The notes beneath the pieces were generated by a model. It saw only the letters and a list, made by a program, of their open reading frames with translations, was not told the DNA's origin and made no database searches. A DNA stretch of 64,000 bases from Ferruginibacter sp. (GTDB taxonomy: Bacteria > Bacteroidota > Bacteroidia > Chitinophagales > Chitinophagaceae). Shown here piece after piece: positions 779-28,075 of this stretch. A program made the position numbers and the translations under genes. The number at the start of each line of letters is the position of its first letter. Positions within the stretch are counted from its first letter, which is position 1. The stretch covers positions 2,905 through 66,904 of the forward strand of contig JBKJKD010000144.1 of assembly GCA_046597635.1 (NCBI GenBank), read 5' to 3'.

Positions 779-2257
779 TTACTCATTGCTTGCCGCGGCT
801 ACTTTTGCAAATGCAACCAGTTGCCAGTAAGGTGGCTGATATTGGTTTTGTATCATAAAGCCATCAACCAATATTTGTGTCTCCGCTTTTACTTTTTTGT
901 TCATCGCAACAAAGGATTCATTCTTTAGCGCTTGGGTGGCGCTCATCCCCTCAGGAATCAAACCTGGTTTACCAAACAGGTTCTTTATCATACAATATCC
1001 TTTAATTACTCTCGCAAGAGGAAGCTGCCAAATATTATATCCAATTTTTTTTCCGTCATCGGCTTGCTCCAGGAGTGCATCCATCACGGCATTATCAATA
1101 TGATCTTTAAATAAAGTTGCAGGGTCCCGCCATTCTGCTACTACAGAGAGTTGTGGATCGTACTCCAGATCGGAGGGCATTTGTGTTACAAAATTTTCTA
1201 CGCCAAAATCATGCAGCCAGTTTACAACGCCCTGCGAAGAGATCGTAGAAAGCGATGGCCACAGTTGTACCCCTTTTTGTTTGTAGGCATAGGAAGCTAC
1301 CTCTGAACAAAACATAGCAGAGGAATCGAAAAAATTCATTTTAAAATCATAAGGAATATGCCGGGCAAAAGATTCGTCATATATTTTCCTGGCAGCTTTT
1401 TGCGGAAGCATGGGATCAGATAGCATAGCAGCAAGATCGGCTCTTGGCCTCATCACCATAAAACGTAATTTTTTATCTTTCTCATATTGTTGAACAGTGG
1501 CGACAGCCACCCCCCGTTCTATGTGTGATTCAATCAAAAAAGGAGTATTTGTTTTTTCATCCACATAACATAAAGCCACGTGAGAATAATTGCCGGGATA
1601 ATCATTTCCCCTTGAAATTAAAGCAGAAACTTCTGCACCGCCACGGGACACCAGGAGGTCGCCACTGTGCACCTTTAGACCAAATATAAAAGCGGATGGA
1701 GTGCCGGACTTCTCATCTTTAACCAACATTGCGGGTGGAAATTCGGCTCCATTAGTTTGAAGCAGTACTTCTTCTATAGCAGCCCTCATGCCGTATAACA
1801 TGCTGTACAAGGTGTTGCGTGCAAGTGGGTCCTGCAAGTTCCAATGCTGAGACTGCAGCTTGATATAATTACGCATCTGGTTGTAATAATTGATATACCA
1901 AACAAGTTCGCCAGGCTTTACGGCAATAAGCGGTGCAAGGGAAAAGAAAGTATGTTGGAGCGTAGCAAAATTGGTATCGCCTGCGGCAATTTGTTGTTGC
2001 TCAATGAGCACAAACTGCGCTGTAGCTTTTGCTTTTAAAACAGCAATGCTACTGTCTAACTGATAAGCCGGCAACTGTTTGCTTTTACGAAAATCGTTTT
2101 CTAATTGCTCCCAGAGCTTATCACTGTTCCATGCGAATGGTCTTGCATTTGCCTCAACCAAAGTTTCCCTTTTTTGAGCGTCTGGGATCATCAAAAGCAG
2201 GTACAACAAGAACGCTAAACTGAGGACTTTTATAATTTGTATTTTGAATTTTTTCAT
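779..2257 (-). CDS. YiiX/YebB-like permuted papain (NlpC/P60, C92) amidase with N-terminal anchor
   Basis: GDLLVSRG...YSHVAL (His) precedes YDF...MFCSEV (Cys), the permuted order. Hydrophobic N-terminus. Confidence 0.8.
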   Translation of the reverse strand: MKKFKIQIIKVLSLAFLLYLLLMIPDAQKRETLVEANARPFAWNSDKLWEQLENDFRKSKQLPAYQLDSSIAVLKAKATAQFVLIEQQQIAAGDTNFATLQHTFFSLAPLIAVKPGELVWYINYYNQMRNYIKLQSQHWNLQDPLARNTLYSMLYGMRAAIEEVLLQTNGAEFPPAMLVKDEKSGTPSAFIFGLKVHSGDLLVSRGGAEVSALISRGNDYPGNYSHVALCYVDEKTNTPFLIESHIERGVAVATVQQYEKDKKLRFMVMRPRADLAAMLSDPMLPQKAARKIYDESFARHIPYDFKMNFFDSSAMFCSEVASYAYKQKGVQLWPSLSTISSQGVVNWLHDFGVENFVTQMPSDLEYDPQLSVVAEWRDPATLFKDHIDNAVMDALLEQADDGKKIGYNIWQLPLARVIKGYCMIKNLFGKPGLIPEGMSATQALKNESFVAMNKKVKAETQILVDGFMIQNQYQPPYWQLVAFAKVAAASNE

Positions 2258-4393: not shown

Positions 4394-4579
4394 ATGAAAA
4401 AAATTATCCTTTCTCTTTTTGTGCTTACGCTGCTGAGCAGCTGCTTTATATTTAAGAAGAAGGAAAAATATGGTTGTCCCGGCAGCCCGCAGCCCGGTCA
4501 GCTTACCAACGACCAAAAGATAGCGAGTGGCCAAAAGGTGAAAGAAACGAAATATAGAGGTGGCAAAAAAGGCTACTAG
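4394..4579 (+). CDS. Small basic lipoprotein (61 aa), function unknown
   Basis: MKK, hydrophobic stretch and lipobox LSSC; Lys-rich mature part with YGCP. Confidence 0.7.
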   Translation: MKKIILSLFVLTLLSSCFIFKKKEKYGCPGSPQPGQLTNDQKIASGQKVKETKYRGGKKGY

Positions 4580-24913: not shown

Positions 24914-26716
24914 ATGACCGCATCAGAATTTGCAGCCATAGCTGCTACCATACCTGTTTCTCCCGGCATCTATAAATATTTTGATGCCAACAATCAGCTC
25001 ATATACGTGGGCAAGGCAAAACATTTAAGAAAAAGGGTCAGCAGCTACTTCAATAAAAACCTGCAGAGTTATAAAACGGTAGAGCTTGTAAATAGGATAA
25101 TACGAATTGAGTTTACCATTGTAAACAGTGAACAGGATGCGTTCCTCCTCGAAAATTCCCTGATAAAAGAATACCAGCCGCTTTTTAACATCAACCTAAA
25201 AGACGATAAAACCTACCCCTATATCGTCGTAAAAAATGAACGCTTTCCGAGAGTGTTCTTCACTCGCAGAAAAATAAATGATGGCTCTCAATATTTTGGA
25301 CCCTACACATCTGTAGGAAAAGTGCGTGACTTGCTGGACGTTATTAAGCAGAATATTCCGTTACGTACCTGTAAACTCAACCTTACGGAAAATAATATTC
25401 AAAAGAATAAGTTCAAGGTATGCCTTGAATATCACCTGGGAAATTGTAAGGGTCCCTGTGAAGGTTTGCAAAGTACAGATGACTATAACCTCGGCATACA
25501 ACAGTTAAAGCATGTACTCAAGGGGAATGTGTACCCGGTAATGCAGCATTTTAAGACACTGGTTAAAGACCATGCAGAAAAAATGGAGTTTGAAAAAGCT
25601 TCCTTTTATCAATCCAAAATAGAGCACCTGCAACAATATCAATCTAAATCTGAAGTGGTAGGTACCAAAACAGGAACCATAGATGTGTTTAGCATGATTG
25701 AAGAAGGAGACCAGGCTTATGTAAATTACCTTGCAGTGAACAATGGCAGTATCATTCAGACAAAAACCATCACGCTTCAAAAAAAATTGGAGGAACCGCC
25801 TGCGGAAGTGCTCAGTTTTGCCGTAGCCCAGCTTAGACAAACTTTTGCAAGCGAAGCAACGGAAATCATTATTCCTTTTGAAATTGACTATCCTGCGGAG
25901 GGAATAATACTTACCGTACCAAGGAGCGGAGATAAAAAGAAGCTACTGGAACTGTCTCAAAAAAATGTAGACTATTTCAAAGAGGAGTTACATGCCAGGA
26001 AATTGCTGAAACTGGAAGATAAAACATCAGCCGAAAAAAGTAGGATACTGGTGCAATTGCAAAAAGACCTGTATTTAAAGGAACTACCCACTCATATTGA
26101 ATGCTTTGATAACTCCAACTTCCAGGGAAGCTACCCGGTGGCAGCAATGGTTTGCTTTATAAATGGCGAACCTAGTAAAAAAGACTATCGGCACTATAAT
26201 ATCAAAACGGTTTCGGGCATCAACGACTTTGCCTCCATGAGTGAAGTGGTTTTGCGGCGTTATCAGCGGCTAATTACCGAAGAAAAAGATTTACCCCAGC
26301 TTATCATCATAGACGGAGGCAAAGGGCAGCTAAGCGCCGCATTAGAAAGTATTGAACAACTAGGCCTCACCGGAAAAACAACCTTGGTAGGCTTGGCTAA
26401 AAATAAAGAAGAACTGTTTTTTTCCGGGGATACTTCTTCGTTGCAATTACCCTGGGATAGTGAAAGTCTGAAGTTGATCAGGCGCATCAGGGATGAAGTG
26501 CATCGATTTGGTATAACGTTTCACCGCAATAAGCGGAGCAAGGGCACTTTTGTAAATGAAATGGAAACCATTAAAGGCATTGGCAAACAAACCACTGATT
26601 TACTACTAAAAAAATACCGGTCAGTAGCACAAATAAAACAAAAAACGCTGGAGGAACTTACCTCAGACATAGGGAAAGACAAGGCAGAAAAACTCTTTAA
26701 AGGTCTCAATGGATAG
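24914..26716 (+). CDS. uvrC: Excinuclease ABC subunit C
   Basis: GIY-YIG (PGIYKY...IYVGKAK.L.KRVSSYF), IECFDNS, DGGKGQ, RIRDEVHRFG, C-terminal HhH. Confidence 0.98.
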   Translation: MTASEFAAIAATIPVSPGIYKYFDANNQLIYVGKAKHLRKRVSSYFNKNLQSYKTVELVNRIIRIEFTIVNSEQDAFLLENSLIKEYQPLFNINLKDDKTYPYIVVKNERFPRVFFTRRKINDGSQYFGPYTSVGKVRDLLDVIKQNIPLRTCKLNLTENNIQKNKFKVCLEYHLGNCKGPCEGLQSTDDYNLGIQQLKHVLKGNVYPVMQHFKTLVKDHAEKMEFEKASFYQSKIEHLQQYQSKSEVVGTKTGTIDVFSMIEEGDQAYVNYLAVNNGSIIQTKTITLQKKLEEPPAEVLSFAVAQLRQTFASEATEIIIPFEIDYPAEGIILTVPRSGDKKKLLELSQKNVDYFKEELHARKLLKLEDKTSAEKSRILVQLQKDLYLKELPTHIECFDNSNFQGSYPVAAMVCFINGEPSKKDYRHYNIKTVSGINDFASMSEVVLRRYQRLITEEKDLPQLIIIDGGKGQLSAALESIEQLGLTGKTTLVGLAKNKEELFFSGDTSSLQLPWDSESLKLIRRIRDEVHRFGITFHRNKRSKGTFVNEMETIKGIGKQTTDLLLKKYRSVAQIKQKTLEELTSDIGKDKAEKLFKGLNG

Positions 26717-26726
26717 TTGCGAACAT

Positions 26727-26785
26727 AAAAAAGGGCCAGGATAAAAATCCAGCCCCGTTTAAAATCCAATATCCTATGAAAAACC
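26727..26785 (-). ncRNA. Candidate sRNA copy 1 (~59 nt)
   Basis: Minus strand GGTTTTTCATAGGATATTGGATTTTAAACGGGGCTGGATTTTTATCCTGGCCC-T6; -7-like TAGTTTTA at 26797-26790. 5' end inferred. Confidence 0.6.
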
Positions 26786-26818
26786 GTTGTAAAACTAAGG
26801 GAAGTATTTTTAGCTACC

Positions 26819-26838
26819 TATACCATTTTTGTGGTATA
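26819..26838. promoter_or_regulatory. Palindromic operator TATACCA-N6-TGGTATA
   Basis: Perfect 7-bp arms, 22 nt from the -7-like box of copy 1. Confidence 0.65.
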
Positions 26839-26870
26839 AGTTAAATTTTGACATTCGTTGAGGATGGAGC

Positions 26871-26932
26871 AAAAAAAGGGGCCAGGATAAAAATCCAGCC
26901 CCGTTTTAAAATCCAATATCCTATGAAAAACC
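26871..26932 (-). ncRNA. Candidate sRNA copy 2 (~62 nt)
   Basis: Near-identical to copy 1, with one extra T, one extra C and a T7 tail; -7-like TAAGTTTA at 26944-26937. Confidence 0.6.
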
Positions 26933-26965
26933 GTGGTAAACTTAAGCCTATATATGTTATCTCTA

Positions 26966-26985
26966 TATACCCTAAAATGGGTATA
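26966..26985. promoter_or_regulatory. Palindromic operator TATACCC-N6-GGGTATA
   Basis: Perfect 7-bp arms, 22 nt from the -7-like box of copy 2. Confidence 0.65.
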
Positions 26986-26995
26986 TTTCAAATAA

Positions 26996-27023
26996 AAAGC
27001 CCTCTTCATCGGAAGAGGGCTTT
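26996..27023. terminator. Terminator of the gldKLMN operon
   Basis: aaagccctcttc-atcg-gaagagggcttt; T-tract on the minus strand. Confidence 0.85.
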
Positions 27024-27044: not shown

Positions 27045-28064
27045 TTAGTAACTCCACAAATCCTGCTCGTAGTTAAATATCTTGTCCTTGATATTTTCAC
27101 CTTCCAGCAGCTGTAGAATAACATTTTCGTTTAACCCTTTATAATTTTTAATAAACTGATCGTACGGGTTGTCAATAGTGCTTTTTATAATTCTTCCGTA
27201 GAACATGCGACTTTCGAACAATTCCTCCCAACTCATGCGGGCTCCAAAGTTCTTGCCATTGTAAACTTCGTACTTAGCGAAAGTCTCCCTCATGTCAGGA
27301 TAATATACCCAAAATAATTCAGTTGGTCCAAGATCTACACCCTGGCTGGTAATAACATTTTTTACCGGGGCTATTCCTAGGATACGCATGAACAACCGTG
27401 AGCTCTCTTTATCAAAAATCACTTCTTCTTTTATCCTGAACTTGTAAAATGAGTCGAAACTGATATCGTTTACCATTTTTTTAGTCCCCGTTAGTTCCCC
27501 ATTTTCGTTGTAAATAGGAACATCAATAGGATCTCCAGATACCACTTTGGCTACTTCACCTTTGGTCATTGGTGTTGTAAAACGATCATCTACACTACTA
27601 AAAACAGTTACCACATCATCCTGTATGGCCTGGAGTAAAATAGAAATAAAGCGTTGGTTCCCATTATTCTCATCGGCTGAGTATCTAAACGGGAGGTTGA
27701 TCTTCTCTCTCGTATCAATTTCTCTCCAAACCTTATGGCGATAAACGGCGTCATCTGCACGCAGATGCTCATAGGCAAGTGGAGTTCTGTCTCTGAGTAC
27801 CGTGGTTTCTACTGCCTCATCGGGCCTAAGAGACTTCTTAACCGCTTTGAGGGGCAAACTGTCAATTGCTGGTGCTGCTACTGCTGCCATGGCGGCCACA
27901 GTATCCACGGTAGCAACCGTAGGCTTCACCTTTGCTTTTGTTTTTGTAGCGGTCGCCCTCTTCGTAGAAGTTCGCTTCTTTACTGGTTTTTTCTGAGCCA
28001 TGGCATCAGAGAAGCCACAGATCAAAATAGCCAGGAATAATAATTTAATAATACGCTTTTTCAT
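27045..28064 (-). CDS. gldN: Gliding motility / T9SS protein GldN
   Basis: YEHLRADD..Y...VWREIDTREKIN.PF, F.IKEE..FDKE.SR, LFWVYYPD.R, IFNYEQDLWSY; last gene of KLMN. Confidence 0.93.
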   Translation of the reverse strand: MKKRIIKLLFLAILICGFSDAMAQKKPVKKRTSTKRATATKTKAKVKPTVATVDTVAAMAAVAAPAIDSLPLKAVKKSLRPDEAVETTVLRDRTPLAYEHLRADDAVYRHKVWREIDTREKINLPFRYSADENNGNQRFISILLQAIQDDVVTVFSSVDDRFTTPMTKGEVAKVVSGDPIDVPIYNENGELTGTKKMVNDISFDSFYKFRIKEEVIFDKESSRLFMRILGIAPVKNVITSQGVDLGPTELFWVYYPDMRETFAKYEVYNGKNFGARMSWEELFESRMFYGRIIKSTIDNPYDQFIKNYKGLNENVILQLLEGENIKDKIFNYEQDLWSY

Positions 28065-28075
28065 ACCTGTAAGTT

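Follow-up and report, generated by a model that had tools for sequence, protein, structure and literature searches.

What is encoded between a uvrC-like gene and gldN in this Ferruginibacter sp. contig, where a short minus-strand sequence is antisense to a translation start? In the window, that is, the whole 64,000-nucleotide stretch that was analysed (contig JBKJKD010000144.1, positions 2,905 to 66,904), the first-pass annotation had taken positions 26766-26785 for the seed of a small RNA (sRNA). It proposed that such RNAs repress a regulon of MKK signal-peptide mRNAs for envelope and type IX secretion system (T9SS) proteins by covering the start codon, or act as a sponge. Our analysis favours the first of these proposals. 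We consider it probable that the two tandem units found here are independent genes for a trans-acting, start-masking sRNA of about 60 nt, the Chitinophagaceae counterpart of FopS of Bacteroides thetaiotaomicron, with exported proteins as targets.

Two sRNA units and their copies in the genome

The uvrC-like gene (plus strand, ending at 26716) is separated from gldN by a 328-bp gap, which holds on its minus strand the gldN terminator and then two near-identical units 146-147 bp apart (Table 1). Positions 26766-26785 are the first 20 nt of copy 1, the promoter-distal unit. Each unit is laid out as a -7 box (TAAGTTTA or TAGTTTTA), 4 nt, GGUUUUUCAUAGGAUAUUGGAUUUUAAA(A)C, a hairpin GGGGCUGGAU-UUUU-AUCCUGGCCC(C) and U6-7, and the U-tract follows the hairpin on the minus-sense strand only. 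The start site of copy 1 was placed by the position of its -7 box and by analogy with the mapped +1 of FopS and GibS. Structure prediction gave a weak 4-bp internal helix only for the seed, leaving the 5' 28 nt largely unpaired. The hairpin of copy 1 lies about 10-15 nt from the uvrC stop codon. The closest GldN, with 84% identity, is found in a Ferruginibacter MAG.

Table 1. Positions of the sRNA units and neighbouring features in the window
Feature	Position	Strand	Description
sRNA copy 1, ~59 nt	26727..26785	-	predicted start G 26785, U-tract end 26727; 89.8 bits (model R1)
Single-stranded 5' seed, copy 1	26758..26785	-	GGUUUUUCAUAGGAUAUUGGAUUUUAAA, includes CAU complementary to start AUG; invariant across copies and genera
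Terminator hairpin, copy 1	26733..26756	-	GGGGCUGGAU-UUUU-AUCCUGGCCC, then U6 at 26727-26732
-7 promoter box, copy 1	26790..26797	-	TAGTTTTA; consensus TAnnTTTG; ends at -5
sRNA copy 2, ~62 nt, gldN-proximal	26871..26932	-	92 bits; Rfam FopS model aligns at 26868-26933
-7 promoter box, copy 2	26937..26944	-	TAAGTTTA
22-bp palindrome, candidate operator	26965..26986	.	ATATACCC-N6-GGGTATAT; about -33 to -54 of copy 2
Related palindrome	26819..26838	.	TATACCA-N6-TGGTATA; upstream of copy 1; from inverted-repeat search
gldN terminator hairpin, 12 bp	26996..27023	-	separates gldN from copy 2
gldN, last gene of gldKLMN	27045..28064	-	start ATGAAAAA at 28057-28064; 9 contiguous bp with seed

The assembly (G000; 3.88 Mb, 41.8% G+C) holds eight copies with the invariant GGTTTTTCATAGGATATTGGA and one variant with GAGUUUUCAUAGGGUACGGAUUAAAAAC. 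All eight genome copies have identical 5' 22 nt, as do 27 copies taken from about 20 genomes within the genus, and the sequence flanking the eight copies is unrelated and diverged. The other seven copies lie at unrelated loci with no common neighbour. Compensatory changes in the hairpin occur among paralogues (GGGGCUGG/CCUGGCCC, GGGACUAG/CUUGGUCCC and GGGCUUUGAU/AUCAUCGCCC), and 96.8% of the cells are paired in a hairpin alignment of 22 distinct sequences. Covariation in the gldN-linked copies was uninformative because their stem is too conserved, and the support for the hairpin comes from the paralogues.

The sequence upstream of 145 non-identical units, drawn from many genera, has the consensus tTATcTTtg..tCGG, which contains a Bacteroidota -7 box 4-5 nt before GG; judged by this box, the promoter of each unit is probably of the housekeeping type. 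No promoter of the ECF type, considered by analogy with RybB, was seen among these housekeeping-like sequences. No conserved open reading frame was found on either strand of the units. A small plus-strand frame from ATGAAAAACC ('ATG AAA AAC C..') was rejected, since the copies differ after codon 4 and the frame mirrors the -7 box instead. A guide RNA of the dCas12f kind (PMC13472631) was also rejected: the RNA is too short, no dcas12f/rpoE locus adjoins it, and the seed is identical in all copies.

The palindrome upstream of copy 2 recurs as an inverted repeat ATACCC-N6-8-GGGTAT in many genera, also at gldN-linked copies, some 33-55 nt before the start of the sRNA (loci L268-L284); in some genera it takes the form CCTATA..TATAGG. 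It looks like a conserved site for a putative dimeric transcription factor controlling the sRNA. Moreover, a second subfamily, 'Type B', is present in the assembly (C125:9860-9922, minus strand); it begins AGUUUUCAUAGGGUACGGAUUAAAAAC, has its own -7 box TAccTTta, and co-occurs with the main type in many Chitinophagaceae (loci L143-L146, L030, L037, L039 and L040).

Distribution and kinship with FopS and GibS

Searches with a covariance model built on the eight copies found 1-13 copies both in 24/24 genomes of the genus and in 108 of the 150 Chitinophagaceae genera that were sampled; the 5' ~30 nt hardly vary. The exact seed pattern occurs in at least 118 contigs, labelled as Chitinophagaceae or Chitinophagales or more broadly (Bacteroidota, Sphingobacteriales, 'uncultured bacterium'); the named genera include Ferruginibacter, Flavisolibacter, Niabella, Sediminibacterium, Puia, Segetibacter and Hanamia, among others. 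Isolates of Niabella aurantiaca, Foetidibacter luteolus and Longitalea arenae are among the carriers of the pattern. The sRNA seems to be confined to one large subclade of the Chitinophagaceae.

The position beside gldN was followed by scanning 1.5 kb on either side of gldN from 30 genera. The sRNA lies directly downstream of gldN and on the same strand at 25 of the 30 loci (24/29 without this genome). The gldN-linked copies of the different genera agree fully in the first ~30 nt and over most of the stem. This synteny is stable over deep divergence, with GldN only about 50% identical. As a separate observation, the family members that lack the sRNA (e.g., G041, G057, G071, G093 and G100) mostly carry the GldN sequences that diverge furthest (E-values for the most part 1e-38 to 1e-57).

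The nearest characterized RNAs come from B. thetaiotaomicron. FopS comprises 14 paralogues there; each measures ~65-70 nt, is single-stranded on its 5' side, ends in a terminator and has a promoter of the canonical type (Ruttiger et al., 2025; PMC11697453). Outer-membrane proteins are enriched among the predicted targets of FopS (PMC11697453). FopS-10 binds beside the start codon of susC (BT_3983) and blocks its translation in vitro, and compensatory mutations restore the effect (PMC11697453). The start codons of BT_0771 and BT_3893 are spanned by pairing with GibS, which may also pair within a coding sequence (Ryan et al., 2020; PMC7366714). For both RNAs, seed pairing at or next to start codons was demonstrated by EMSA, in-line probing, compensatory mutations and in-vitro translation (PMC11697453; PMC7366714). 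Moreover, RbpB, a protein with an RNA recognition motif (RRM), binds the 5' part of FopS and counteracts it (PMC11697453).

The 5' end GGUUUUUCAUAGGAUAUUGGAUUU of the sRNA here matches the seed GUGUUUUUCAUgGUAUUAGAUUU common to B. thetaiotaomicron FopS and GibS. Judging from the T7 primers and the northern probe of the FopS paper, the 5' end of FopS/GibS is GUGUUUUUCAUAGUAUUAGAUUUAAGG, and the sRNA here begins GGUUUUUCAUAGGAUAUUGGAUUUUAAAC. With standard filters, the Rfam model of FopS (RF04319, BTncRNA_FopS) had no match anywhere in the assembly, and an Rfam scan at the 3-kb scale returned gldN terminator noise only. An alignment to copy 2, covering the model in full (1-71), appeared only when 81-231 nt were scanned; its 15.7 bits (E = 1.3-3.7) do not reach the gathering score of 56 bits, because the sRNA here has an insertion of 2 nt (GA) and is devoid of the AAGGUUAAC extension. 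The common parts of this alignment are GUUUUUCAU.G, UAUU.GAUUU, the hairpin and the U-tract. Set against the R1/R1' seed of RF04319, GUGUUUUUCAU(G/A)GUAUUAGAUUUAAGG, the sRNA here has GUUUUUCAU.G and UAUU.GAUUU.AA.

The likeness extends to the whole gene. Both RNAs are about 60-70 nt long (59-62 nt here) and consist of a single-stranded 5' stretch and one rho-independent terminator (U6-8 here). Both have many paralogues per genome, each with its own canonical -7 box of the sigma-A type placed 4-5 nt before the +1 G, and both 5' ends contain GUUUUUCAU(A/G)G and UAUU(A/G)GAUUU(U)AA. Bacteroidales FopS loci, fetched with the RF04319 model, showed the identical layout of -7 box, 4 nt and +1 G. RRM proteins are present in the FopS host and in this genome, where three single-RRM genes (PF00076, RRM_1; C230:647-856, C238:233-445 and C30:11193-11402) belong to the class of RbpB. 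Pairing of the seed with initiation regions of envelope-protein mRNAs, at or next to the start codon, is known for FopS and predicted here. On the other hand, FopS belongs to gut Bacteroides, whereas the hosts here are soil and freshwater Chitinophagaceae of another order, in most genera of which one copy is anchored downstream of gldN. The predicted targets also differ: T9SS cargo is enriched here and SusC-type receptors are not, and no significant match to the T9SS cargo domain (PF18962) was found in B. thetaiotaomicron. Similarly, GibS has the same 5' R1 seed (GUGUUUUUCAUAGUAUUAGAU...) and pairs across start codons in an organism without Shine-Dalgarno (SD) sequences, but it is a single-copy RNA of 145 nt with a second seed (R2), internal hairpins and a non-canonical promoter induced by GlcNAc.

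By its sequence, then, the Chitinophagaceae sRNA is of the FopS kind, a likeness that fits common descent or convergence on start regions and stays below the formal Rfam threshold. The start-codon-masking mechanism is already known from FopS and GibS, and the Chitinophagaceae branch is absent from RNA databases. In other families of the class, weaker relatives retain no more than the U-run and CAU(A/G)G, e.g., GUUUUUUUCAUAGUUUAGG, GUUUUUUCAUAGGUGUUGG and AUUUUUUCAUAGUUGGG, near the noise level; they hint at a class-wide superfamily of start-codon-complementary sRNAs. Among such weak matches, three loci (L251 in G337, L254 in G287 and L153 in G273; 28-35 bits, near noise) encode hairpin-terminated RNAs beginning U6-7-CAUAG.

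Predicted pairing with start regions and secretion cargo

That the seed is antisense to a start region, as the first-pass annotation had it, was borne out. The minus strand from 26785 to 26758 reads GGUUUUUCAUAGGAUAUUGGAUUUUAAA, and its plus-strand complement TTTAAAATCCAATATCCTATGAAAAACC includes ATGAAAAA at 26776-26783; copy 2 has the same sequence, with ATGAAAAA at 26923-26930. The complement also resembles an initiation region, falling at the 75th percentile of the genome's real starts and at the 98.8th percentile of random genomic ATG contexts. Gene starts here rest on our own simple dicodon and start-context model, which called 2980 genes, and the called genes have an A-rich profile at -13 to -10 and no SD. 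Among 2883 called genes, 246 have ATGAAAAA at the start, and called starts make up 25% of its occurrences in the genome; the mere existence of a seed complement is trivial. The genes at 2257 and 4394, which had been named for this start, do begin with it (ORF 779-2257, minus strand, MKKFKIQIIKVLSLAFLL...; ORF 4394-4579, plus strand, MKKIILSLFVLTLLSSC...), and both look exported.

The overlap claimed for the gldN start is likewise present, the plus-strand text acgctttttcatacc at 28053-28067 having TTTTTCATA (9 nt) in common with the sRNA. Its extension to a 12/13 match needs the upstream AC. This AC is unlikely to be part of the transcript, since -5, counted from the first G, is where the -7 box ends, in agreement with the mapped FopS and GibS starts. 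The 9-nt match TATGAAAAA is common to 112 called gene starts, so that gldN is not special in this respect, and gldN as a target is not supported, its pairing score being 28, at the 62nd percentile.

Nearly all of the best predicted sites in the genome keep the register in which CAU meets AUG, U5 meets AAAAA at +4 to +8 and AUUUUAAA meets the A-rich tract. At a gapped pairing score S of at least 39, 97 start regions were found versus 60 +/- 23 for dinucleotide-shuffled seeds, and 17 of the 200 shuffles reach 97; the expected enrichment of start sites over shuffled controls is thus present but weak to modest. There was no excess of long perfect in-register matches at starts (maximum 11 nt in 4 genes, 3 expected by position frequencies). 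RNAduplex energies in -40 to +25 windows, a measure made noisy by large loops, were no different between start regions and internal coding windows. The core duplex UUUUUCAUA:UAUGAAAAA comprises only nine A/U-rich pairs and finds a match in ~4-9% of all genes; something other than this duplex must therefore provide specificity. An exact k-mer search for a dedicated long target gave nothing convincing, the longest complements outside the sRNA genes being 12-14 nt, near chance. The top predicted target in the assembly (S=54) is a DoxX-like membrane protein of 136 aa (C321:785-1192, minus strand). Its orthologue in a second genome (G168) ranks third in the sample there (S=48), and nine orthologues reach S>=39 across 25 sRNA-bearing genera; their start regions are not conserved and many of their 5' UTRs look very short. 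Another observation concerns two adjacent exported-protein genes on contig C224 (starting at plus-strand index 6087 and 6612), of which one has a T9SS tail. Each has in its 5' UTR, ahead of the start codon, a bipartite stretch complementary to nearly all of the seed (e.g., AUCCAAU-UCCUA-cauc-UGAAAAGCC).

With regard to target classes, the predicted enrichment of signal-peptide genes was recovered: signal-peptide-like genes score above the rest (MWU p = 2e-24), which partly restates their MKK starts. SusC/TonB-type receptors showed no enrichment (29 Plug-domain genes, median 27 versus 26 for others, p = 0.30), whereas SusC-like TonB-dependent transporters are the validated target class of FopS. 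Several top matches ended in the Por_Secre_tail domain, and genes with this ending were therefore tested as T9SS cargo, a choice made post hoc in the discovery genome. In this genome (G000, g1), 15/63 cargo genes reach S>=36, versus 6.6% of other genes and 10.5% of other signal-peptide-like genes. As independent checks, G168 (g144; 47.6% G+C, identical seed) gave 15/72 cargo genes versus 5.1% of others and 7.6% of other signal-peptide-like genes, and G143 (g119) gave 6/30 versus 5.8% and 7.7%, respectively; genes neighbouring the cargo genes served as controls in these two genomes, and signal peptides were assigned by a crude heuristic. In G168, cargo genes ranked above other genes with MWU p = 4e-7 and above the remaining signal-peptide-like genes with p = 2e-4. 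The cargo-versus-all AUC was 0.60 (G000), 0.68 (G168) and 0.64 (G143); of 200 shuffled seeds, 3, 0 and 1, respectively, did at least as well. The signal shrinks under nearest-neighbour energies and depends on the scoring scheme: the RNAduplex AUC for cargo versus other signal-peptide-like genes was 0.58 in G000 (reached by 6/40 shuffles) and 0.60 in G168 (1/40). The preference for T9SS cargo is accordingly modest, seen in three genera and scoring-dependent, suggestive rather than established. Candidate targets of the exported or cargo class in G000 are C146:4628-7894, C338:6910-9171 and C238:11389-21213. Of the regulon as first proposed, the start masking and the leaning to exported proteins gain from the FopS/GibS kinship, the in-register sites and the signal-peptide and cargo scores; the modest margin over shuffled seeds, the ordinary number of long perfect matches, the weaker cargo signal under nearest-neighbour energies and the lack of SusC enrichment count against it.

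Readings of the locus

From the gene anatomy, conservation, copy number, gldN synteny and seed similarity to FopS and GibS observed here, we infer transcription, the start site, targets and repression as follows. A housekeeping-type promoter (-7 box TAnnTTT[G/A]) would drive each unit separately, giving a predicted primary transcript of ~60 nt that has the 5' end GGUUUUUCAU, begins with GG and runs to the intrinsic terminator. Target mRNAs would be bound at their translation initiation regions by the unstructured 5' ~28 nt: CAU would sit on the start AUG, U5 on AAAAA in the Lys/Asn codons 2-3, and the AUUUUAAA stretch that follows on the A-rich enhancer (about -10 to -17). Such pairing may keep the SD-independent Bacteroidota ribosome off the start site and so repress translation. 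The preferred targets would be exported-protein mRNAs starting MK(K/N), with a modest, replicated preference for type IX secretion cargo, and an RbpB-type RRM protein probably modulates the sRNA. Kinship with FopS and GibS makes it very likely that the start-codon-masking logic is right, and an exported-protein regulon is plausible.

Comparable strategies are found in other bacteria. The sigma-E-dependent RybB and MicA and the tandem paralogues OmrA/B of enterobacteria are short sRNAs with a conserved 5'-terminal seed that repress envelope mRNAs at initiation regions; unlike the sRNA here, they depend on Hfq, are unrelated in sequence and target SD or early coding sequences; the comparison is an analogy only. 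The anti-SD (C-rich/CCUCC) sRNAs RsaE/RoxS and the rhizobial 'cuckoo' RNAs have seeds that complement a generic ribosome-binding feature, which leads to a broad regulon. By analogy, the generic feature here would be the start codon with its A-rich flanks, whereas it is the SD in the RsaE/RoxS type.

An extension of the favoured reading, possible though we put it forward tentatively, is that the gldN-anchored copy is an ancestral controller which couples the T9SS machine to its load. It would mask the start codons of cargo mRNAs and so throttle their translation, in a loop like that of sigma-E with RybB and MicA for outer-membrane proteins, at a level set by a factor bound to ATACCC-N6-8-GGGTAT.

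It is rather doubtful, by comparison, that the sRNA is mainly a decoy, in which the invariant 5' stretch with its two GGAU motifs in AGGAUAUUGGAUU would titrate an RbpB-like RRM protein or another RNA (the sponge of the first-pass annotation) and the start complement would be secondary. Invariance of all ~30 nt across 25 genera is above what a pairing seed usually needs, multiple copies suit titration, and both the binding of RbpB to the 5' part of FopS (PMC11697453) and the three RRM_1 genes of this genome fit such a role. However, FopS acts directly on mRNAs and RbpB antagonises it (PMC11697453), the class-wide common element is a U-run followed by CAU(A/G)G and not GGAU, and the Type B paralogue has GGGUACGGAUU.

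We give the same low weight to a pairing sRNA that has few dedicated targets, reached through its GGAUAUUGGAUUU part in 5' UTRs or inside genes, with the ATGAAAAA match incidental. The generic 9-nt match is too common for specificity, the two C224 genes carry their bipartite complement (AUCCAAU-UCCUA..UGAAAAGCC) upstream of the start codon, and GibS may pair inside a coding sequence (PMC7366714). Nevertheless, none of the exact complements of 12-14 nt outside the sRNA genes lies in or close to a start region or 5' UTR, and they are near chance; the best alignments are in register with AUG, and the U-run with CAU is the most widely conserved part of the superfamily.

Very unlikely is a cis element of the gldKLMN operon, that is, a 3'-UTR-derived RNA or a read-through module for the stability of the gld transcript or for the convergent uvrC. 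The conserved place after gldN on the same strand in 24/29 genera and the closeness of the hairpin to the uvrC stop codon speak for it, but a strong gldN terminator precedes the unit, each unit has its own -7 box, and the seven further copies stand at unrelated loci. A dispersed DNA repeat instead of an RNA gene (a protein-binding site with a terminator, or a miniature mobile element) would fit the multicopy, often tandem arrangement but is hardly credible, as the conserved stretch runs exactly from the promoter-proximal GG to the U-tract, only one strand has a U-tract after the hairpin, terminal inverted repeats and target duplications are absent, the gldN synteny outlasts deep divergence, and the homologous Bacteroides units are proven transcripts (PMC11697453; PMC7366714).

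The favoured reading, a start-masking sRNA of the FopS kind, bears on a field in which sRNA regulation in Bacteroidota is known almost only from gut Bacteroides, whose sRNAs have been reviewed as narrowly conserved (PMC13750123). A seed antisense to ATGAAAAA was already established through FopS and GibS; our study adds the anchoring at gldN, the cargo test in three genera and the negative outcomes for SusC-type receptors and for gldN. In most of the genera of a large environmental family, a seed of the FopS type hardly varies, and it has a physical link to the gldKLMN secretion and gliding operon. This suggests that start-codon masking by sRNAs with a 5' U-run and CAU is an old and widespread form of envelope control in SD-less bacteria, and it offers a testable link from an sRNA to type IX secretion cargo.

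Finally, in two other genera, a copy of the sRNA was found immediately downstream of a T9SS cargo gene with a Por_Secre_tail match (G097:C1:2621924-2622266 and G168:C1:6103093-6103559).
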